This document shows positions 2,433-12,657 of a DNA stretch of 13,408 bases, piece after piece. Numbering within the stretch: position 1 is the stretch's first letter; the number at the start of each line of letters is the position of its first letter. The position numbers were made by a program, and so were the translations under genes. This DNA is from Bdellovibrionia bacterium (GTDB taxonomy: Bacteria; Bdellovibrionota; UBA1018). The notes below the pieces were generated by a model that was given only the letters and a program-made list of their open reading frames with translations, had not been told where the DNA came from and searched no databases. Where the stretch lies: assembly GCA_049424145.1 (NCBI GenBank), contig JBMSSC010000074.1, forward strand, positions 1 through 13,408, in the 5' to 3' direction.

Positions 2433-4826
2433 TCAAGCTGCTTTTGGATGAATGGGTTTTTGGGTTAACGAGGGGAGAGCAATGAGTAACGCTTCATCCA
2501 TCCGCTCGACGAAGGCGACCTGAATCCCCATTTGAATGGATTCACTGAGTTCATTGAAATCCGTTTTGTTTTCCAGTGGGAGGATCACGGAGGTGATCCC
2601 AATGCGTTTGGCCGCGAGTATTTTCTCCTTGATTCCGCCAACGGGGAGAATGAGTCCGCTCAGGGTGATTTCACCCGTCATGGCTAGATCCGCTCGACAG
2701 GGGGTCTGAGTGAGGGCTGAGACCATGGCCACCACCAGAGCAAGCCCGGCTGAGGGGCCATCTTTTGGAGTGGCTCCTGCTGGAACGTGAATGTGGAGAC
2801 CTCCTTTTTGAAGCAGAAAGGGTTGAATGTCCCACTTTTGGGCATGGGAGCTAATATAAGTCTGGGCAGCTTGAGCGGACTCCTTCATGACTTCCCCCAG
2901 CTGCCCCGTGAGTCGGAGCTCTTTGGTGTGAGGCAGATGGTGGGCCTCAATGTAAAGTATATCCCCTCCGGTGGGCGTCCAAGCCAGCGTGGTTGCCACT
3001 CCTGCAGGAAGCGCGTGACGCAATTTTTCAAATCGGAACTTCTCAGGCCCGAGTAGATCACCTAAAAGTTGAGTAGTAAGGACAACTGCTTCCGGATGAC
3101 CCTCTGCAAATCGGCGTGCAATTTTACTGGATAAGCGCCCCAGAATCCTCTCTAACTCACGGACGCCCGCCTCCCGAGTGTAGGTCTGCACAATCGATAA
3201 AAGCACCTCTGGGGGAATATGAAAGTCTTTGGGCTGAAGACCTGCCTCTTTGAGCCGCAGAGGAATGAGATACCGTTGGGCAATCGCAACCTTTTCCTCC
3301 TCACTGTAGCCTGAGAGTCGAATGATCTCCATTCGATCTAGTAGGGGAGGAGGAATCGTTTCCAATTGATTTGCTGTGGTCATGAAGAAAACGGGAGATA
3401 GGTTAAAGGGTAAATCCAGGTAATGATCACGGAATGCATAGTTCTGAGCCGGATCGAGGATTTCCAAAAGCGCTGCGGCCGGGTCTCCTCTAAAGTCTCG
3501 TCCAATCTTATCAATTTCATCGAGCATTAAGATCGGATTGTTTGACTGTGAGCGTCGGATAGCTTGTAAAATCCTTCCAGGCATAGCACCGACATAAGTT
3601 TTTCGATGGCCCCTGAGCTCTGCTTCGTCATGTAGTCCTCCTAAACTCATGCGTTCAAATTTTCGACCCATTGCACGGGCAATGGATTGCCCAAGTGAGG
3701 TTTTTCCGACTCCCGGGGGACCAACAAAACAGAGAATGGGGGGGCGAGCCTGGGGATTGAGCTTCATGACGGATAAATGCTCGAGGATCCGTTCTTTCAC
3801 CTCATCCAAGTCAAAGTGATCCTCATCTAAAACCTTTTTGGCTTGCGTTAAGTCCAAGTGATCCTGCGTTGATCGATTCCACGGCAACTCGGCAATGAAC
3901 TCCAGGTGCGCTCGAAGTATCTGAAAATCAGGGGCTGAGGGAGTGAGCCGCTCAAAGCGATTGAGTTCTTTTTCAATCTCAGTGTGGATTGGATCCGGGA
4001 TATTGGCCTCTTTTAATCGAGTCTTCAACTCTTCGATTTCAGATTTCTCAGTGCCTGACTCGCCCAACTCCTCTTGAATAGCCCGCAATTGTTGCCTCAG
4101 GAGGTATTCTTTTTGTTGCTTGCTGATTTCAGTTTGTGCATGGGATGTGATTTTTGCACGAAGCTCGAGGACCTCGAGTTCATTGAGTAGATCCGCATAT
4201 AACATCTTTAAGACGTGAAGTGTGGAGTCTGCCTCAAGGATCTTCTGTTCTTTCTCAATCCCTAAGTTTAAAATCGAACTGAGCATGTAAGCCAGTTGAA
4301 GAGCATCCGGCGTTTTCTCCATGAGTTGCTCAAGATTAACGCTCAGCTTCAATGGACTGAATTGAAAGATCTGCGTTGCAAGATCCACGATGGAGCGTTT
4401 GAGTGCCTCGACCTCTTGGTTTTCCTCAAAGCGAAAAGGCATGGGTGTCGATCGACCGATGAGATAAGGGGCGGTTTGTTCAAAATTTTTGAGTAAGACT
4501 CGCTCTAAGCCTTGAACCAAAAAGTCGATCCGGTCATCCGTGTGAGCGGCCTTTTTGATCACCACTTGAGTCCCCACATGAAAGAGATCATTGAATTCAG
4601 GGCTTTCAATGCTCGGGTCGCGCTGAGCAATGACGAGAAGCGTTTTGTTCTCATTGAGTAATGCAGCTTCCACGGCTTGAACCGATGCTATGCGCCCTGC
4701 AGACAGAGGGACAAAAAGAGATGGAAAGACTACAGTATTTTTGAGAGGGAGAATGGGAAGGATAAGATCCATCTCAGGTTGATTATGAGAATCAGAAGAG
4801 GAGGAAGAAGAGGTTAAATGAGTCAC
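2433..4826 (-). CDS. lon: ATP-dependent Lon protease (endopeptidase La, LonA type)
   Basis: LON N-domain (LPILPLKNTVVFP), Walker A GPPGVGKTS, Walker B LMLDEIDK, RGDPAAALLEILDP, LLDRME, YTREAGVR, protease domain HIHVPAGATPKDGPSAG (catalytic Ser) and GGIKEK (catalytic Lys). Start uncertain: GTG at 4826 or in-frame ATG at 4772. Confidence 0.98.
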   Translation of the reverse strand: MTHLTSSSSSSDSHNQPEMDLILPILPLKNTVVFPSLFVPLSAGRIASVQAVEAALLNENKTLLVIAQRDPSIESPEFNDLFHVGTQVVIKKAAHTDDRIDFLVQGLERVLLKNFEQTAPYLIGRSTPMPFRFEENQEVEALKRSIVDLATQIFQFSPLKLSVNLEQLMEKTPDALQLAYMLSSILNLGIEKEQKILEADSTLHVLKMLYADLLNELEVLELRAKITSHAQTEISKQQKEYLLRQQLRAIQEELGESGTEKSEIEELKTRLKEANIPDPIHTEIEKELNRFERLTPSAPDFQILRAHLEFIAELPWNRSTQDHLDLTQAKKVLDEDHFDLDEVKERILEHLSVMKLNPQARPPILCFVGPPGVGKTSLGQSIARAMGRKFERMSLGGLHDEAELRGHRKTYVGAMPGRILQAIRRSQSNNPILMLDEIDKIGRDFRGDPAAALLEILDPAQNYAFRDHYLDLPFNLSPVFFMTTANQLETIPPPLLDRMEIIRLSGYSEEEKVAIAQRYLIPLRLKEAGLQPKDFHIPPEVLLSIVQTYTREAGVRELERILGRLSSKIARRFAEGHPEAVVLTTQLLGDLLGPEKFRFEKLRHALPAGVATTLAWTPTGGDILYIEAHHLPHTKELRLTGQLGEVMKESAQAAQTYISSHAQKWDIQPFLLQKGGLHIHVPAGATPKDGPSAGLALVVAMVSALTQTPCRADLAMTGEITLSGLILPVGGIKEKILAAKRIGITSVILPLENKTDFNELSESIQMGIQVAFVERMDEALLIALPSLTQKPIHPKAA

Positions 4827-5017: not shown

Positions 5018-7816
5018 ATGGTTTCAAATTCTAAGCCTGTATTTCCTTCTCAGCAACTTCAATCGGATCAGTCTCCATTTGAGGCCTATCGGGACTATTA
5101 TTATTCCATCCATGAGGCTGATCGCTCGGAGGCCATTGAGTTTCTAGCAACCCTCGGAGAGCCCGAGGCGGCTCGAGAATTGATCCATATTTTCCACGAG
5201 TGTGAGTGGCGAACCACGCGATTTCAGGTGATCCAGGCTTTGGGCCGACTTCCGACGGAGCGGACCCTTGAGTTTTTGTTTCGGATTGCACGCGACACTG
5301 GGGATCTGCCCATGGCTGAAGCGGCTATTCGATCCTGTGGTCAATCCCAGAATCGTCTTGCAGCAGGGTTTCTCAAAAATTATTGGCGAAATGCTCCATC
5401 AACCCTTCGAGCCGCCATTGTCGGTGCTTTGGGCCAAATCCCGGATCGATCTTTGAGCGATGAGTTTTTAGCTGAGCTTCCCCAAGCAATCAAAGCCCAG
5501 CAAGTGGACTTGGTGAGAAATCTTGTTTTTAGCTTGGGTGAACTGAGGGTGTTTAAGAGTCTCAGTCCATTGATCGAGCTAGCAGCAACGACACCCATTT
5601 CTTCGCTCGCTCTTTGTGCCCTAGTCGCCATTGGGAAGTTGGCGTCGGATCCAAGCGTGCTGAAGGATTTAAGCAAGCGCTTTTCAAACGATGTGTTGGA
5701 TCTACAGATCTTTCGCAGCGTGCACGATCAGATTACGCTTCGCTCGCAATTCACCCTGGATCAAGCGATCCAAAGGATTGTTACCGCGGAGAGCTTTCAT
5801 CCCGTGAATGCCTATGAACTCCATCAGTTCGATGCTCTGCAAGTGAGGGAGAAGTTAAAACAGCTCGCTCAGTCATCATCCCCGGATCAGCGCAAGAAAG
5901 TTGCGCTGACTCTTGAAGAACTGAATTTTCCAGCCTTTCAAAGCGGGTCAGAAGAGTTCGGTGTGTCGATCAAGGAGGGGGATAAAACCCAGGACTCTGA
6001 AGATCAACGGGGAGAGAATCATTCCTCCGATCAGACGGAGGAGCTAGGCTCGCTCTTTTGGACTGACGCCATCCAGGGTCAAACCCTGAGCCTCAGTGCT
6101 GGGATTGCCCCCTTTAAAACAGTGGTGGAGCAGGGACAGTACCGTGCTCTTTCCATCGAAGAACGAGGGAAGCTGATTCATTCCCTCTATCTCTATGGTC
6201 TTTCCGTTCAGAGTGATTCCCAATTCCAATCAGAAATGAATCCGATTCTAGAGCAGCTCTTTGGGCAAGAGGAGTCGGATCTTCTTCAAGCCCGAATGAT
6301 TCGGGCTTTGGCAGTTTTAGGATTAAGATCAAAGAAGATCAATTCGTTTATTGGTCACCTGCTCGAGGACGTGCAGAAGGCTAACTCTTTAGCTTCGTTG
6401 GATAAGGGAAATCTAGGGAATCTCTTGAAGAGTGCACTTCAGTTTTTGGAGTGCAATCCAGAACCCGGGTTCTTAAAGAGTCTGATCCCCTTTGGCGTTG
6501 ACCTTCTGAGCTTCAAGAAGTGGGACGAGGCGACTCAAGTCGGTTTGGAAATCGCCTATTTTAAAGCCCTCTGCTCCTATCCTCAGATGAGTCAGACGCA
6601 GTGCTTAACTCTTTTGCCCTTTGTAAAAACGAGGCTAGAAAAAAAAGAGACCCATCGCGAGCTTATTCTCTGTCTTTTGAAGTGGATCCGGTCCGTTCCT
6701 CATCCCTCCCTTCTTCAGCCCGTTCTCAGTTGCTTAGGCCAGGGGTTTCGTCTTCAGCTCGCAGCAATCATCACCCTGAAGTCCTTTGCTTCAGAGCAAG
6801 CCGTGGAACCGGTGGCATCGTTTTTAACCTCTCCCTCTGCATCTCTTGCGGGCCGAGCCTTAGATACCCTCAGTTCACTGCCTGGAATTCGAGCCAAGCG
6901 GATCTTAATCGATCACCTGGCCGATCAGATCCAGGACCTTGAGGTTTGTGCGAAGGTGATCCGCAGCTTCCGCTTGCCTGAATCGGGATCCGAGTATTTT
7001 ATACAACTTCTTGACACCGTTCTTAAGGCGAATCCGGATCATCCGCTGATCGATGGGTTAATTCAAATGCGAGAAAAGCTGATGGAGAACCCTGCCGACC
7101 CCAGTGTTTTGAACCTGAGAAAGCCCTTTGGGCTCATTCAAATGACGGCAGATGTGGCTCTGTTGGATCAGGAGCTCAGAAAAAAGATCACTCACTATGA
7201 TTCCTATGATGAGTCGATTAAGTCCGTCTTACGGTCGGCAGAGTTGCCCTACTTGCACCGTGAAATTTTTGACCAGTATGTGGATAAAGGGTCCTCAGTG
7301 GTTGAGTATTGTAAGGCCGTGGATCTCTTTTTAGAAAAGACGTTGGGAAAGCGACGACTTTTTCCAAAGTTGGAGCACTCCTTGGTTGAGTTTCAAAACG
7401 TGATTCATGCCTATGGACTCCATTCAGAGGATCCTGGGGCCAGGTATGTCCTAAAGACGATGGATCTTGAGAAGTTTTTTGACCCCTCAAGCTTTCCCCT
7501 TCATAAGATGCTGGGGATTGCACAGGCCATTGGGTCCGGGCGTGTGCTCAATGATCATTTTAAGGTCATCGATGGGCTTCGGGCCTGGGCAGTAGTGGTT
7601 TTACTTTTTTGTCGGGGGCCGCATCGCTCTAAGCCGTTGATTCCCATGAAAAACCTCAAGGATGAGCAGCTGATCTCAATTGCAAAAAGAATGATTAAGC
7701 TTCAAGACATTCGAAATCCGATTGCTCATCGTCAAACCGTCATCGATTTTTCGACCTTGGATGAGGTCCGTGCTCAGGCCTTCTCCATCTTAAATTTTTT
7801 TGACGCCTTGGAATAG
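5018..7816 (+). CDS. HEAT/ARM-repeat protein with C-terminal putative HEPN domain (932 aa)
   Basis: Repeated helical units (RFQVIQALGRL, AEAAIRSCGQ, RAAIVGALGQI, RNLVFSLGEL, ALVAIGKL; later QLAAIITLKSF, AGRALDTLSSL). C-terminal helical domain has SVVEYCKAVDLFLE and LQDIRNPIAH (R899-x4-H904, nt 7712-7729). HEAT call is firm; HEPN call rests on motifs. Confidence 0.8.
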   Translation: MVSNSKPVFPSQQLQSDQSPFEAYRDYYYSIHEADRSEAIEFLATLGEPEAARELIHIFHECEWRTTRFQVIQALGRLPTERTLEFLFRIARDTGDLPMAEAAIRSCGQSQNRLAAGFLKNYWRNAPSTLRAAIVGALGQIPDRSLSDEFLAELPQAIKAQQVDLVRNLVFSLGELRVFKSLSPLIELAATTPISSLALCALVAIGKLASDPSVLKDLSKRFSNDVLDLQIFRSVHDQITLRSQFTLDQAIQRIVTAESFHPVNAYELHQFDALQVREKLKQLAQSSSPDQRKKVALTLEELNFPAFQSGSEEFGVSIKEGDKTQDSEDQRGENHSSDQTEELGSLFWTDAIQGQTLSLSAGIAPFKTVVEQGQYRALSIEERGKLIHSLYLYGLSVQSDSQFQSEMNPILEQLFGQEESDLLQARMIRALAVLGLRSKKINSFIGHLLEDVQKANSLASLDKGNLGNLLKSALQFLECNPEPGFLKSLIPFGVDLLSFKKWDEATQVGLEIAYFKALCSYPQMSQTQCLTLLPFVKTRLEKKETHRELILCLLKWIRSVPHPSLLQPVLSCLGQGFRLQLAAIITLKSFASEQAVEPVASFLTSPSASLAGRALDTLSSLPGIRAKRILIDHLADQIQDLEVCAKVIRSFRLPESGSEYFIQLLDTVLKANPDHPLIDGLIQMREKLMENPADPSVLNLRKPFGLIQMTADVALLDQELRKKITHYDSYDESIKSVLRSAELPYLHREIFDQYVDKGSSVVEYCKAVDLFLEKTLGKRRLFPKLEHSLVEFQNVIHAYGLHSEDPGARYVLKTMDLEKFFDPSSFPLHKMLGIAQAIGSGRVLNDHFKVIDGLRAWAVVVLLFCRGPHRSKPLIPMKNLKDEQLISIAKRMIKLQDIRNPIAHRQTVIDFSTLDEVRAQAFSILNFFDALE

Positions 7817-7897
7817 ATTAAAAATAAGTTTTAAAAAAAAATAAACAAATATAAAATAAAAAAAATCGTTCTATTTTTTGACTTCGAGGAAAAACCC
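7817..7897 (+). promoter_or_regulatory. Extremely AT-rich A-tract intergenic region, probable promoter/UP region and RBS of cheA
   Basis: Only 2 G/C in 7817-7865, with A-tracts at 7820-7824, 7833-7841, 7853-7856 and 7858-7865. SD GAGGA at 7886-7890 precedes ATG 7898. No GC-rich terminator hairpin and no clear -35/-10 pair. Confidence 0.45.
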
Positions 7898-10723
7898 ATG
7901 TCGGATCAGACTGTAGACTCAGGCCTAGACGAGTTTTTTTCAGAATGTAAGGAAAACTTGCAGAGTTTTACAGCGAATCTTGCTCAGCTGGAGAAAGAAG
8001 CCTCTGTTAATCCGGTCCTGATTGATGCCATGTATCGGAGCATGCACACCATGAAGGGTTCAGCTCAGCTTTTTGGATTTGAATCCTTAGGGTGGGTTGG
8101 TCATGCCGTGGAGACCGCCTTAGAGCCCATTCGAAGGCTGAAGATGGTGATTCCTCCTGCGCTCATTGACTCTCTTTTCAATACCGTCGACCTGATTGAG
8201 TTGATTTTAAAAGAGATCTCAATGAATCCAAAAAACTCAGAGACTCGATTGGTTGCTGAAACCAAATCTCATGTGATTGGCCTATTGAGCCAAGTGGTTC
8301 AACTCTTTGGCGCAGAGATGTCTTTGATTCGAGATTCAGGCGTAGTTTCTCATTCCCCATCGGATGCGAGCTCCGGGTCTGCTGTGCGAGTGAAGGAGAA
8401 GGCTCAATCTCAGGCTCGGAATTCTAAGCAGCCCATCAAACAGGGTTTGGATCTGCGAGTTGAAAAAAACACAAGTTTTGCAAGCCCTCGCATCTCGAAT
8501 CCAGCTCAAGTGAAGCCATCTCTGAATCGAACTCATGTGGACGTGAAACCCCCATCCACCAGCGAACCCCCGAAGACGGAATTGAAAGAGGATTTGAGTC
8601 CTTCCCTTCATGAGCAGAACTCCACGGTTAGGATCCAGGTGGCTCTTCTGGATAAACTCATGAACTTGGTGGGGGAGATGGTCTTGGTAAGAAATCAGCT
8701 GCTTCAATACTCTCAAAGAAAGGACATGGATTTTGAGTTTCTTAATCTCAGTCAGAGAATCGACCTAGTGACCTCGGAGCTTCAATCGGAGGTGATGAAG
8801 ACACGAATGCAGCCTCTGGGTACAATCCTCGGGGCGTATCAGCGCATGATGAGGGATTTGGCGCGAAATCTCGGTAAGCAGATTGAGATGACGGTTCAGG
8901 GACTCGACACGGAGTTGGATAAGACCCTTATTGAGGCCATTAAGGACCCTCTGACTCACATGATCCGAAACTCCTGTGATCATGGAATTGAAACGGCCCA
9001 AGAGCGAATTGCTTTGGGAAAAAACCCGGTGGGCCATATTCGGATTTCAGCGTTTCAAGACGGTGGGTTTATTGTGATTGAGCTCTCCGATGACGGACGG
9101 GGACTCAACCATAAACGGATTGCTGAGAAAGCCATTGAACGAAAGCTCATCTCTGCTGAAGCGGTCAGCAAAATGAGTGAGCATGAAGTGGCACAGCTGA
9201 TCTTTACTCCAGGCTTCTCAACAGCCGATTCGGTGAGTGCGATTTCGGGTCGAGGCGTTGGGATGGATATTGTGAAGATCAATCTCGAGAAGCTCGGTGG
9301 CCAAGTTGAACTTAAAAGCGAGTATTTAAAAGGCATGACCATCCGGATGCGAATTCCGCTCACCCTGGCTATTGTTCCGGCCTTAATTGTGAAAGTGGGC
9401 GGTGAGCAATTTGCCATTCCTCAATTTAAGCTTGCTGAACTGATTCGAGTGACTCGAGATGGGCATGGTCCTAGGCTGGAGTACCTTCAAGGCAAACCCG
9501 TCTTTCGTTTAAGAGGAAATCTCCTCTCAATCTTAGAGCTTTGCAAATTCATTCAGATGCAGTGCGTGGACTTAACCTCAGACACACTCAACATCGTGGT
9601 GCTGAATAGCGAGAACGGGGTTTTTGGTCTCCTCGTGGATGAGATCAAAGACTCAGCCGATATTGTTGTGAAACCTTTGCCTGAGTTCCTCAAGAGATTG
9701 AATCTCTACTCGGGAGCCACCATCATGGGAGATGGCTCCGTTTCCCTGATCCTGGACATCACCGGATTGTCAAAAAAGGCGAATTTTCTTCAAAAATCGA
9801 AGGCGAACCCCAATTTGGAAAATCTTCCTATGGGAGCCGAGCGCTTGCCTAATGCTGAGGCCCAAGACTATCTGTTCTTTCGGCTCGGCGGTCGTGAGGT
9901 CTATAGCGTTCCACTGTGCTTAGTGTACCGCTTAGAGGAGTTTAAGAAAGAGCAAGTGGAGCAGACTGCCTCTCAACGGGTCGTAAAATACCGTGATTCT
10001 CTTTTGCCGCTACTTCCTTTGCGAGACTTCATTCCCGTATCGCGTGGAGAAGCAGACCACATGACTCGAGACTCAGTATCAGTAGTGGTGGTCCAAAAGC
10101 AGGGAAAACTCTACGGCTTTGAGGTTGATGAGATTCGCGATATCCTCTCGGTGGAGCGACACCCTGAGGAGCCGATGAAAAGGACGTTTGGGGTTCTAGG
10201 AAATATATTGGTTGGTGATGAGATCGTCACTGTCGTTGATGTGTTGGAAATCATTGATTCTCTTTTAGGGCAACTACCGCAGGTCGGAATGGGAGAGCGA
10301 GGCCGCTCAGTTCAAATGCAGCCAACTCCTGCAGGACATGTTCTTTTTGCTGAAGATACGCCGTCCTTTTTTAAGCAAGTCAAAAAAATCCTGGAGAGTC
10401 ATGGTTTTCAGGTCACTCACTTTAGTAACGGGCTGGAGGCTTGGGAGAGTTTAAGATCTGCTCCGGAGGGCCAGTATCATATCATTCTCTCGGATATTGA
10501 AATGCCCAAGATGAACGGCTACGAGCTTGCCAAGAAAATTCGATCCGATTCGCGATTCACTCATATTCCCCTGGTGGCGCTCACAACAAAATTCAGAGAG
10601 TCCGATATTCAAAAGGGGATGCAATCAGGATTCGATCAGTACTTAGAGAAGATCAAAGCCGATCAATTGGTGCATACCTTAGGTTCGTTGCTGAAGCTAG
10701 GAGACGAAAATGGCCACAAGTAA
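7898..10723 (+). CDS. cheA: Hybrid chemotaxis histidine kinase CheA (Hpt-linker-dimerisation-HATPase-CheW-CheW-REC)
   Basis: Hpt YRSMHTMKGSA; dimerisation VRIQVALLDKLMNLVGEMVLVRNQL; N box HMIRNSCDHGIE; G1 DDGRG; F box IFTPGFST; G2 GRGVGMDIV. Two CheW-like domains (FGLLVDEI, YGFEVDEI) and a C-terminal receiver (FAED...LSDIEMPKMNG...ALTT...YLEK). Confidence 0.97.
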   Translation: MSDQTVDSGLDEFFSECKENLQSFTANLAQLEKEASVNPVLIDAMYRSMHTMKGSAQLFGFESLGWVGHAVETALEPIRRLKMVIPPALIDSLFNTVDLIELILKEISMNPKNSETRLVAETKSHVIGLLSQVVQLFGAEMSLIRDSGVVSHSPSDASSGSAVRVKEKAQSQARNSKQPIKQGLDLRVEKNTSFASPRISNPAQVKPSLNRTHVDVKPPSTSEPPKTELKEDLSPSLHEQNSTVRIQVALLDKLMNLVGEMVLVRNQLLQYSQRKDMDFEFLNLSQRIDLVTSELQSEVMKTRMQPLGTILGAYQRMMRDLARNLGKQIEMTVQGLDTELDKTLIEAIKDPLTHMIRNSCDHGIETAQERIALGKNPVGHIRISAFQDGGFIVIELSDDGRGLNHKRIAEKAIERKLISAEAVSKMSEHEVAQLIFTPGFSTADSVSAISGRGVGMDIVKINLEKLGGQVELKSEYLKGMTIRMRIPLTLAIVPALIVKVGGEQFAIPQFKLAELIRVTRDGHGPRLEYLQGKPVFRLRGNLLSILELCKFIQMQCVDLTSDTLNIVVLNSENGVFGLLVDEIKDSADIVVKPLPEFLKRLNLYSGATIMGDGSVSLILDITGLSKKANFLQKSKANPNLENLPMGAERLPNAEAQDYLFFRLGGREVYSVPLCLVYRLEEFKKEQVEQTASQRVVKYRDSLLPLLPLRDFIPVSRGEADHMTRDSVSVVVVQKQGKLYGFEVDEIRDILSVERHPEEPMKRTFGVLGNILVGDEIVTVVDVLEIIDSLLGQLPQVGMGERGRSVQMQPTPAGHVLFAEDTPSFFKQVKKILESHGFQVTHFSNGLEAWESLRSAPEGQYHIILSDIEMPKMNGYELAKKIRSDSRFTHIPLVALTTKFRESDIQKGMQSGFDQYLEKIKADQLVHTLGSLLKLGDENGHK

Positions 10724-11149: not shown

Positions 11150-12274
11150 ATGAAAGTCTTTATCGTTGATGATTCATCGGTTTTTAGAACTCAGATTTCA
11201 AAGGCCTTAGCGGATGTGGAGGGAATTGAAGTCGTCGGTACGGCGTCAAATGGGAAGCTTGCATTACAAAAGCTCAGTTTGATGAACGTGGATGTTGTCA
11301 CCTTGGACATGGAAATGCCCGAGATCAGTGGGCGCGAGGTGATTAAGGAAATGAAACTCAGGGGAATTCATTCCAGGGTGATTATCTTTTCCGCTCAGAG
11401 TGCTCAAGGAGCCGAAAGCGCCTTGATTGCATTGAATGAGGGAGCAGATGACTTCGTGCCTAAACCAACCGGAAGCTTCTCGTCGATTGATGAAGTGGCC
11501 GAGTTGATCCGAAAAAGCCTGGTTCCCAAGATTCAGCAATTCGTCTCCAAATTTGGGCGCAACTCAAACACGCGGATGGTACAATCAAACAGTTCTCCTG
11601 CATTGCCCGCTTTTTCCTCCCCGCTATCGGTCGCTCGGAGCTCACCTTCTGCGTTGCCAAAAAAAGAACTCTCTAAGTTTCAACCCTCCGTCTTAGTGAT
11701 TGGCTCTTCGACAGGGGGACCTGCGGCGTTGGACAAGATCTTCTCAGGCTTAAAAGAGCCTGTGAATGTGCCGATTCTGATCACTCAGCACATGCCCCCG
11801 GTTTTTACGGCAAGTCTAGCCAAGCGTCTAGCTGAGGTCTCCGGTATCCCTGCCGCTGAAGCAAGATCCGGGGAGTTCCTTGAGCCAAATCGCATTTACG
11901 TGGCTCCGGGTGATTTTCACATGCTTCTAAGACTTCAGGACTCACGCCCGGCCATTCTCGTTACGAAGGATGCTCAAAGAAACTCCGTTCGCCCTGCTGT
12001 GGATTACCTATTTGAGACGGCGGCTCAAGTCTTCTCCCATCGTTGTTTGGGGCTCGTGCTGACGGGAATGGGTGAAGATGGATTGGCGGGATCCATTGAG
12101 ATTAGAAAAAAAGGGGGCGCTGTCATGATTCAAGATGAGGAGTCTTGTGTGGTGTTTGGAATGCCCGGAGCGATCTATCATGCAAATGAGTACGACTCCA
12201 TGGGTAGTCTTGAGGTGATCACAGCCAAGCTCAACCGGCTGATCAAACCCCCTATCTCAGGGGGGGTGAAATGA
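11150..12274 (+). CDS. cheB: Chemotaxis response regulator protein-glutamate methylesterase CheB
   Basis: N-terminal REC (IVDDS, TLDMEMP, KP), Ser/Pro-rich linker, methylesterase triad motifs GSSTGGP, TQHMP and LTGMGEDG, plus RPAVD and VFGMP. Confidence 0.97.
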   Translation: MKVFIVDDSSVFRTQISKALADVEGIEVVGTASNGKLALQKLSLMNVDVVTLDMEMPEISGREVIKEMKLRGIHSRVIIFSAQSAQGAESALIALNEGADDFVPKPTGSFSSIDEVAELIRKSLVPKIQQFVSKFGRNSNTRMVQSNSSPALPAFSSPLSVARSSPSALPKKELSKFQPSVLVIGSSTGGPAALDKIFSGLKEPVNVPILITQHMPPVFTASLAKRLAEVSGIPAAEARSGEFLEPNRIYVAPGDFHMLLRLQDSRPAILVTKDAQRNSVRPAVDYLFETAAQVFSHRCLGLVLTGMGEDGLAGSIEIRKKGGAVMIQDEESCVVFGMPGAIYHANEYDSMGSLEVITAKLNRLIKPPISGGVK

Positions 12275-12657
12275 AGTATTTTAGTCACTACTTAGTCTCA
12301 AAAGGTGTGGTGTCCGAGGAGGTTTTAGTCAAGTGCCTCCTCAGGCAGGTCCAAGAGCTCCCTATCCTTGCTGAGGTCGTGTTGAGTGTGCACCTTTTAA
12401 CCCCTCAACAGGTTCTAGAGGTTCTTTTGACTCAGAAAAAGCAGAAGATCGATTTTCAGCAAGCTTGTGCTGCCTTGGGCTTTTGGACAGAAGAGCTGAG
12501 TCAAGCCGTGGAGCGTGTTTTAGCGGAAAAACGACGACCGATCTTCAGTTACCTTCTCAATGAAGGAGTGGATCTGGCTGCCCTCATCAATGCCTTAGAT
12601 GACTTTCTCTATCAAGTCGAACTGAGCTCAGATGCGACGGGGAGTCCAGCACTATGA
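12271..12657 (+). CDS. Hypothetical 128-aa helical protein with degenerate MshEN/T2SSE_N-like tandem repeats
   Basis: ATGA overlap with the cheB stop and G-rich SD. Repeats such as YFSHYLVSKGVVSEEVLVKCLLRQ and ILAEVVLSVHLLTPQQVLEVLLTQ follow the spacing of RLGxxLLxxGLIxxxxLxxxLxxQ but lack RLG. Confidence 0.7.
   Translation: MKYFSHYLVSKGVVSEEVLVKCLLRQVQELPILAEVVLSVHLLTPQQVLEVLLTQKKQKIDFQQACAALGFWTEELSQAVERVLAEKRRPIFSYLLNEGVDLAALINALDDFLYQVELSSDATGSPAL

Follow-up and report, generated by a model that had tools for sequence, protein, structure and literature searches.

The stretch of DNA analyzed here, the 13,408 nucleotide (nt) contig JBMSSC010000074.1 of the Bdellovibrionia bacterium assembly GCA_049424145.1 (hereafter the window, at its full length), carries a 932-codon gene whose product joins a long HEAT-repeat alpha-solenoid to a C-terminal helical domain of the HEPN type. 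We conclude that this product, the HEAT-HEPN protein, is most likely a self-regulated dimeric endoribonuclease of fixed architecture, its ribonuclease (RNase) activity and the sensor role of its solenoid being inferred. Taken as a whole, this reading, a single-chain solenoid-plus-nuclease in which the solenoid controls a HEPN endoribonuclease of the RnlA/LsoA structural type, is given a probability of roughly 0.6. An initial annotation, made from the sequence without database searches, had proposed a sensor solenoid fused to a HEPN RNase effector and had hinted at a setting of toxin, abortive-infection or CRISPR-ancillary systems. The architecture and the catalytic motif it described were recovered in what follows, while the setting was not.

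One line of evidence for the assignment of the C-terminal domain is structure comparison. An AlphaFold2 model of the domain alone, built from a 61-sequence alignment, was all-helical with a predicted local distance difference test score (pLDDT) of 93.9 and a predicted template modelling score (pTM) of 0.91. This model was compared with 48,161 PDB representatives by VIA-align, an all-against-all structure search, in which 38 chains gave Z ≥ 5 and 5 chains gave Z ≥ 8. The first three ranks were held by E. coli RnlA (6y2r_A, Z 10.4, root-mean-square deviation (rmsd) 3.5, 139 aligned), LsoA (5hy3_A, Z 9.7, rmsd 3.6, 146 aligned) and the NRD-HEPN part of RnlA (7aex_A, Z 9.6, rmsd 3.4, 140 aligned). 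Subsequent rows were AF_0298 HEPN, sacsin HEPN, ST0689, AbiA, HEPN toxins, HI0074, YutE and Csm6, with DrrA/GlnE, MtlR, Las1, AbiV and ANT-4 further on and Swt1 and HepS (9oik_A, Z 4.8) lower in the list. Going by titles or by the family table of PMC3710099, HEPN-superfamily proteins fill at least 24 of the 39 best rows (Z 10.4 to 5.1), and a HEPN fold is what the initial annotation had staked its reading on. The minimal HEPN domains 2hsb, 3o10, 1wol and 1ufb aligned over about 115 residues at Z 6.9-7.8, spanning model residues 20-226. Rows for Roquin, TT1696, SO_3166 and YggD, which we take to be HEPN proteins as well, stand outside the 24 counted.

The motif points the same way. The HEPN RNase site is described as determined mainly by Rx4-6H, in which the arginine is followed by a polar residue (mostly N, D or H), together with an acidic residue upstream (PMC3710099). 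In the window protein R899-N900-P-I-A-H904 provides the R-x4-H spacing and the polar N, and D769 is a candidate for the upstream acidic residue. The motif sits at the end of a helix (882-903) and is followed by one last helix (911-931), the arrangement the initial annotation had described. Sequence profiles give independent leads. HEPN_RiboL-PSP (PF18735) made sub-threshold matches in 15/61 family members, the best at E 0.0046, and these cover the motif and the last helix (domain residues 184-225 against profile positions 144-185 of 191), while HEPN_Swt1 was matched by one family member. Language-model features in the ESM Atlas led to RnlA-toxin_DBD/HEPN_RnaseLS clusters with scores of 0.90 and 0.87; unnamed proteins of about 215 amino acids (aa) from Campylobacterota and Myxococcota make up the three best clusters (0.95-0.93). 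Because these independent leads agree with the composition of the match list and with the motif and its placement ahead of the last helix, we consider membership of the HEPN superfamily highly probable. Membership of the RNase LS family itself is without sequence support, as the window protein has no Pfam match to RnlA-toxin_DBD or HEPN_RnaseLS. A search of the 301 genomes sampled from the phylum with the PF19034 profile (0/301) was uninformative because its controls also gave no match (0/14).

Clusters resembling the domain were also found in the ESM Atlas among proteins of 321-985 aa from Gemmatimonadota, Planctomycetota and Bacillota, one cluster being all-Sel1 (TM, template modelling score, 0.61-0.67). 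A wider uncharacterised HEPN clade may exist.

The observation is no product of chance, and conservation within the family is densest around the motif. A search with the C-terminal 243 aa (residues 690-932) retrieved 131 database proteins at E ≤ 0.001, and the last 260 residues of the best 120 of these 131, query included, were aligned. Nearly all of the 120 are 820-980 aa long, and their identity to the query in the C-terminal domain is 37-58%. R899, N900 and H904, whose variation among homologues the initial annotation had named as grounds for abandoning its reading, vary in none of the 120 sequences. Equally invariant are R905, Q896, R739, A741, E742, D756, K766, D769, F792, K830, D852, G853, L854 and W857, with P901 (117), A903 (119), T907 (118), K757 (119), R855 (119) and A856 (118) close behind. 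A candidate for the acidic residue that had been expected in an early helix is the invariant D769, which lies with the invariant K766 and is accompanied by E773 in 107/120 homologues, with D in its place in 12. The stretch KAVDLFLE (766-773) is a candidate second half of the active site. The early-helix string that had been singled out, SSVVEYCKAVDLFLE, corresponds to residues 759-773, and LQDIRNPIAH to residues 895-904, and the original numbering of the motif residues was correct. In an independent set of 60 genome-derived sequences 22/226 columns were invariant, the R, N and H of the motif among them, and 8 of the 22 fell within residues 896-907, the densest invariant run of the HEAT-HEPN protein.

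HEPN nucleases act as dimers, with their two motifs side by side. When two copies of the domain were predicted together, the interaction prediction score from aligned errors (ipSAE) of the three runs was 0.78, 0.79 and 0.78, while none of three controls scored above 0.00; contact agreement between the runs was 100% and the partner pLDDT 90. A homodimer with the motif at its interface was predicted. The interface comprises, in both copies, residues 739-741, 754-760, 766, 769, 770, 773, 852-853, 901, 903-905, 907 and 909, and these are the invariant patches of the alignment, motif included. Of proteins with structures solved as pairs, 20 of 30 reach the ipSAE mark, compared with 1 of 23 for those solved as single chains; this calibration holds only roughly, the run having used a custom alignment. 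The model may also have drawn on its memory of solved HEPN dimers, and the pair predicted is that of the isolated domain rather than of two full-length chains (2 x 932 aa).

The remainder of the protein is a HEAT-repeat alpha-solenoid, residues 20-690. A full-length AlphaFold2 model, built from 67 sequences, had a mean pLDDT of 90.2 and a pTM of 0.91 and contained about 19 HEAT-like hairpins (about 39 paired helices) over these residues, in two arcs separated by an acidic insert where pLDDT falls to 42-60 (about residues 310-350). A linker that is gapped or variable among homologues leads to the helical domain (711-931 in the model). The initial description, about 690 aa of HEAT-like repeats followed by a helical domain of about 220 aa, agrees with this model and with Pfam, which recognised HEAT_2 alone in the 932-aa protein (E 1.7e-20, best stretch 34-105). 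NCBIfam offered nothing but a sub-threshold NblB-like HEAT match. The full-length model gave 47 Foldseek matches at E ≤ 0.001, with generic HEAT solenoids such as CAND1, condensin Ycg1, SF3B1, importin-13, transportins and PP2A-A (E 1e-6 to 1e-3 for the best named). The solenoid evolves faster than the nuclease, with a mean column identity of 28% vs 48%, and its invariant positions are mostly arginines, R82 and R242 in the N-terminal arc and R426, R429, R613 and R649 in the C-terminal arc, the others being L87, D96 (also N-terminal arc) and G612.

From these elements the following mechanism is proposed. Two HEAT arcs would be tethered by a flexible linker of about 20 residues to the extended HEPN domain (711-932), and the HEPN domains of two molecules would pair via the face bearing nearly all invariant residues (R739/E742, D756/K757, K766/D769/E773, D852/G853 and P901-T907). 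Pairing would join two R899-N900-x3-H904 motifs into a composite, metal-independent endoribonuclease site; HEPN enzymes typically leave 2',3'-cyclic phosphate ends. The HEAT superhelix would most likely serve as a built-in specificity and control module: by binding a trigger molecule, RNA or a ribonucleoprotein (RNP) it would determine when the two nuclease halves may pair, and so take over from the separate antitoxin of RnlA/LsoA. The solenoid is never found detached, keeps conserved arginines and lacks a partner gene, and it most likely provides substrate or trigger recognition and restrains the nuclease; both the substrate and the gating are inferred.

The obligatory attachment was established from the distribution of the two parts. 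A word-indexed search for relatives of the solenoid was swamped by repeats, and a HEAT-only genome profile search was used instead. Among the 301 sampled genomes of the phylum, the HEPN profile matched 18, with one match each, and 283 had no match. With the HEAT-only profile, strong matches over its full length (E ≤ 5e-64) came from these 18 genomes and no others; a further 45 had only short weak matches (E ≥ 5e-12, typically 80-180 profile positions). Because both profiles match the same 18 genomes, the HEAT and HEPN parts are never found apart in this sample and no alternative effector is found in the HEPN position. An exhaustive search of representative sequences gave 303 matches at E ≤ 0.001, and in the best 150 of these 303 the domain was almost always C-terminal in proteins of 766-1019 aa, or in fragments. 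Stand-alone forms of the domain were considered for 32 strong matches to proteins of 124-399 aa; these come mostly from very short contigs or partial records and were read as fragments of the long protein. Four of the genomes with HEAT-profile matches (G260, G112, G025 and G080) show one stop codon each within the match, and the match in G080 is in two pieces. The stop codons probably reflect overhang of the match past the start codon, with a frameshift possible in G080.

A pattern scan of one genome per species yielded 65 loci, almost all in Bdellovibrionota: Pseudobdellovibrionaceae, Bacteriovoracaceae, Silvanigrellales and metagenome-assembled genomes (MAGs) labelled 'Oligoflexia' or 'Bdellovibrionales'. 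The exceptions are one Entotheonella record and a few Pseudomonadota-labelled MAGs. Loci L047, L055 and L060, together with several other 'Pseudomonadota/Proteobacteria' MAG loci, bear the labels Betaproteobacteria, Nitrosovibrio or Cellvibrionaceae, and some share their gene order with Silvanigrellaceae or Bdellovibrionales loci, for example L047 with L044 and L050 and L055 with L039. These cases are probably wrong labels or bins rather than gene transfer. A FastTree gene tree of the 59 rows of at least 800 aa, from which five loci with shorter open reading frames (ORFs) and L041 were excluded, agrees with taxonomy and places the window protein on a long branch with four Bacteriovoracaceae/Oligoflexia rows (support 97). 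By family, the HEPN profile matched 11/12 sampled genomes of one family, 4/35 of another (all one genus) and 2/34 other genomes of the window's own family. The genome of the window itself has one copy. Two contigs of one Silvanigrellales MAG (L009 and L038) hold two divergent HEAT-HEPN copies in different sub-clades, either a paralogue pair or the product of a mixed bin.

The genomic surroundings consist of housekeeping genes. When all ORFs of the 65 loci were clustered, no neighbour family occurred in more than 13/65, and about six clade-specific syntenies were apparent. The neighbours include RecA, an RluD-like pseudouridine synthase, PrmA, MurJ, M17 and M28 peptidases, DsbD and HiPIP, in addition to an SNF2 helicase, a GAF protein, a phosphodiesterase, ABC transporters, asparaginase and others. 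No RnlB-like antitoxin gene and no conserved neighbour of any kind adjoins the HEAT-HEPN gene across the 65 loci. The toxin, abortive-infection or CRISPR setting of the initial annotation was thus not borne out, because the neighbours are housekeeping genes and a conserved partner gene is lacking.

The alternative that survives best keeps the same enzyme and assigns it to single-protein anti-phage abortive infection, with the solenoid recognising a phage protein directly, this binding releasing or assembling the HEPN RNase, and the RNase cutting tRNA or mRNA to arrest the infected cell. HEPN RNases with an intact motif are mostly effectors of conflict systems, and several HEPN families are on record as fused to alpha-solenoids (TPR, Sel1, ankyrin) (PMC3710099). 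There is also a precedent in HepS, a single HEPN protein in which recognition of a tail-tip protein is combined with tRNA cleavage (PMC13043305). Defence proteins with a solenoid as sensor would be a further parallel. The patchy spread, the faster evolution of the solenoid and the two copies in the Silvanigrellales MAG would suit such a role. Against it, PADLOC-DB 2.0 returned only a generic HEAT-ARM_XIII match (E 4e-6, residues 579-683) and a sub-threshold PtuB (E 0.018) for the protein, and no defence, integrase or phage genes were found among the neighbours scanned. The clade-stable positions of the gene beside recA, murJ and prmA, its presence in nearly all sampled genomes of one family, and a HEPN domain in 18/18 solenoid genomes, with no swapping of effectors, are likewise unlike a defence gene. 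Taken as a full account of the family, abortive infection is a possible but not a favoured explanation.

With regard to function, a lineage-specific role in cellular RNA cleavage or stress is slightly favoured because the gene is single-copy, follows taxonomy and keeps clade-stable positions beside core genes; its near-universal presence in one family and the lack of effector swapping are further pointers. A little over half of the weight lies with this cellular role and about a third with the single-protein anti-phage role. A more ambitious form of the cellular role would make the protein a bacterial counterpart of RNase L and Ire1: a chromosomally fixed, vertically inherited HEPN RNase free of any antitoxin, which would dimerise once its HEAT superhelix had sensed an RNP or a ligand of the cell, and with which certain Bdellovibrionota lineages would reprogram or clear their own RNA in stress or life-cycle transitions rather than in phage defence. 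As a joint claim this is doubtful.

In a second alternative the HEPN domain does not cut at all and the protein is a scaffold that binds RNA, a nucleotide or a partner protein, in the manner of MtlR or of HEPN domains that accompany nucleotidyltransferases. Scaffolding is the typical function of HEAT proteins, and a constitutively active RNase would need a toxicity-neutralising partner gene, of which there is none here. HEPN domains that act as binding modules do exist, but these have wholly or partly lost Rx4-6H (PMC3710099), whereas in this family R, N and H are retained in every aligned homologue and the upstream acidic D769 is invariant. We therefore regard a non-cutting scaffold as unlikely.

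Several results weigh against the reading of a HEPN endoribonuclease, in addition to the qualifications attached above to the dimer prediction. None of the curated HEPN profiles passed its threshold with the window protein (best HEPN_RiboL-PSP, E 0.08, 13 bits vs a cut-off of 28.4), and Pfam gave no other HEPN model at E ≤ 10. Foldseek, named as a check by the initial annotation, did not come out in its favour: the domain model had no match at E ≤ 0.001 in PDB or BFVD (best 0.66 and 0.93); among the non-significant hits Csm6 ranked 37th and a phage 'RNaseLS-like protein' 44th. Sequence searches of PDB with the domain gave 0 matches from the single sequence and 5 chance-level matches from the profile (E ≥ 0.74), and a comparison of the family profile with the HEPN domain of E. 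coli RnlA by hhalign returned a probability of 1.7%. The best VIA-align Z, 10.4, lies below about 13, the level that helical bundles can reach by arrangement alone. The early helix lacks the literal E-x3-[KR] spacing and has the invariant D769 and near-invariant E773 instead. Finally, the patchy spread of the gene (18/301 genomes, 2/34 in the family of the window) fits an accessory or defence gene equally well.

Read at their strongest, these negatives would mean that the C-terminal domain is not HEPN but an unrelated helical domain with a chance R-x4-H, and that the match list reflects a common helical arrangement, in a Z range possibly non-specific for helical proteins. However, the best structural rows are dominated by HEPN proteins and not by random bundles, the sub-threshold Pfam matches fall on the motif-bearing C-terminal stretch, the language-model features lead to clusters of RNase LS type, and the motif lies before the last helix and at the predicted two-fold interface. 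An unrelated domain is quite unlikely on this evidence, and a HEPN domain with an intact catalytic motif remains our preferred assignment.

A role in predation was considered as well, in which the RNase would be delivered into prey and the solenoid would serve for delivery or for immunity masking. Many of the Bdellovibrionota-type lineages to which the family is confined are predatory, and HEPN toxins occur in inter-bacterial conflict. However, no N-terminal signal peptide is obvious by eye (no predictor was run), no conserved secretion-system or immunity gene adjoins the gene, and it was not found in most sampled genomes of the phylum (283/301); a predation effector is very unlikely.

The neighbours of the gene in the window, and the coordinates of the features discussed, are given in Table 1. 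The lon gene has a GTG start, and in its product a Ser-rich extension about 20 residues long precedes the substrate-binding domain at the N-terminus; the cheA product has a long Ser/Pro-rich linker (residues about 150-240). By Pfam, the order on the same strand 3' of the HEAT-HEPN gene is cheA, cheW, cheB, a 128-aa ORF and cheR. The 128-aa ORF made a sub-threshold match to NF053729, a MshE-related cyclic-di-GMP-binding domain (E 1.7e-4, 21.3 bits, cut-off 38), and going by this match it could provide a cyclic-di-GMP input to the Che cluster of the window. No terminator-like site was found in the spacer between the HEAT-HEPN gene and cheA, and its single promoter-like site (7830-7857) is not above chance.

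Table 1. Positions in the window of the HEAT-HEPN gene, the parts and conserved segments of its product, and the neighbouring features
Feature	Position	Strand	Remarks
lon	2433-4826	-	divergent, upstream of the HEAT-HEPN gene
HEAT-HEPN gene (P0001)	5018..7816	+	only open frame there; 932 codons and TAG stop
N-terminal HEAT arc, residues 20-301	5075..5920	+	18 helices, about 9 hairpins (DSSP of AlphaFold2 model)
Acidic insert between arcs, residues 302-347	5921..6058	+	net charge -8; low confidence
C-terminal HEAT arc, residues 348-690	6059..7087	+	about 21 helices (AlphaFold2 model)
Flexible linker, residues 691-710	7088..7147	+	pLDDT 54-55
HEPN-like domain, residues 711-932	7148..7813	+	222 aa, helical; AlphaFold2 domain model
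R739-S-A-E742	7232..7243	+	R739, A741, E742 invariant; predicted dimer interface 739-741
D756-K757	7283..7288	+	120 and 119 of 120; centre of predicted dimer interface
KAVDLFLE, residues 766-773	7313..7336	+	long early helix; K766, D769 invariant
DGLRAW, residues 852-857	7571..7588	+	D852, G853 in predicted interface
QDIRNPIAHRQT, residues 896-907	7703..7738	+	R-x4-H motif, N after R
Spacer, HEAT-HEPN gene/cheA	7817..7897	no strand	81 nt, very A+T-rich, long A runs
cheA (hybrid kinase)	7898-10723	+	Hpt, dimerisation, HATPase, two CheW-like stretches, C-terminal receiver domain
128-aa ORF in the cheB/cheR gap	12271-12657	+	without Pfam family

Neither flanking system appears to belong with the HEAT-HEPN gene. 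Matches of at least 50 bits to Lon, CheA, CheW, CheR or a glycosyltransferase occur in 0/65 related loci, and a 52-bit CheB-like stretch 5 kb from the gene in L034 is the sole Che-like case. An orthologous cheA-cheW pair (44-54% identity) is present in 5 genomes of the same family, and in 5/5 the roughly 10 kb upstream of it contain neither a HEAT-HEPN gene nor lon. The Che and Lon adjacency is incidental and limited to this lineage. A functional link to lon, with Lon as a degrader of an antitoxin, was rejected, as Lon adjoins the gene in the window only. An accessory or output role for the protein in the downstream chemosensory pathway (cheA-cheW-cheB-orf128-cheR), like that of the HEAT-repeat partners which some Che systems have, is barely tenable: the gene lies on the same strand immediately upstream of cheA with no terminator-like site between, and a Che system of Myxococcus has been connected with HEAT/PBS-lyase-like proteins, but the spacer is A+T-rich with a promoter-like site and the comparisons of loci come close to refuting the idea. 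The chemotaxis operon is not part of the HEAT-HEPN system.

HEPN RNases are known mainly as toxins restrained by an antitoxin, a CRISPR signal or a phage trigger. In the HEAT-HEPN family the catalytic motif is fully conserved, no partner gene is present and a superhelix of about 690 residues is always attached. If active, the family would offer a simple one-gene model of alpha-solenoid control over a HEPN nuclease and a candidate regulated RNase in poorly studied, often predatory bacteria, and its interest would rise were the RNase L-like cellular role true. It also falls in a blind spot of routine annotation, as the initial annotation had foreseen: more than 100 database entries are named just 'HEAT repeat protein', 'HEAT repeat domain-containing protein' or 'hypothetical protein'.

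Among known systems, the closest structures to the C-terminal domain are those of RnlA and LsoA (RNase LS), the toxins of the anti-T4 toxin-antitoxin systems RnlAB and LsoAB, with 139-146 residues aligned. They share with the window domain an extended HEPN fold of about 150-220 aa in which R-x4-H lies close to the C-terminus and one helix follows it. No sequence relation between them is detectable (the hhalign result above). RnlA and LsoA have NTD and NRD domains (TBP-like or RNase H-like) where the window protein has a 690-aa HEAT solenoid, and they are found on prophages or plasmids with an antitoxin, whereas the window gene is chromosomal, among housekeeping genes and without an RnlB-like neighbour.

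In design the protein resembles RNase L and Ire1, in which a sensor or repeat part and a C-terminal HEPN RNase share one chain and the enzyme is dimeric, the dimer being a prediction here. RNase L combines ankyrin repeats with a KEN/HEPN domain as the window protein combines HEAT repeats with HEPN, and KEN is recorded as fused to kinase and ankyrin repeats (PMC3710099). The window protein differs in having no kinase or pseudokinase and no KEN match, and ligand-induced dimerisation is a supposition in its case. HepS of the Gifsy-1 prophage resembles it in sensing and acting as a single HEPN protein without a partner (PMC13043305). However, HepS is small, prophage-borne, tetrameric and without a solenoid, while the window protein is about 900 aa, chromosomal and in a non-mobile, non-defence context.

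An alpha-solenoid joined to a motif-bearing HEPN domain, as in the window protein, is described for LA2681-TPR, C6orf70-TPR and DUF4145-Sel1, and AbiU2 (Sel1 neighbour) and AbiJ-NTD4 (HEAT repeats) have an alpha-solenoid beside or fused to HEPN (PMC3710099). By Pfam none of these families matches the window protein, and they are described in restriction-modification or abortive-infection neighbourhoods (PMC3710099), unlike the window gene. The structure search of the ESM Atlas led to a similar domain in Sel1 proteins of 985 aa that form one cluster (TM 0.63 by query). RiboL-PSP-HEPN (PF18735) is the sole curated HEPN profile with recurrent matches to the family; these are below the gathering score, and the window gene has neither the L-PSP fusion nor the ParB operon of that family (PMC3710099). 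In the part of PMC3710099 covered, HEAT repeats appear only with AbiJ-NTD4. A description of the HEAT-HEPN family or architecture was not found in the literature searched, which did not extend to Additional file 1 of PMC3710099, where a relative could be listed. The HEAT-HEPN proteins constitute a new HEPN family whose architecture is new but thematically familiar, because HEPN domains joined to TPR, Sel1 and ankyrin solenoids are already on record (PMC3710099).

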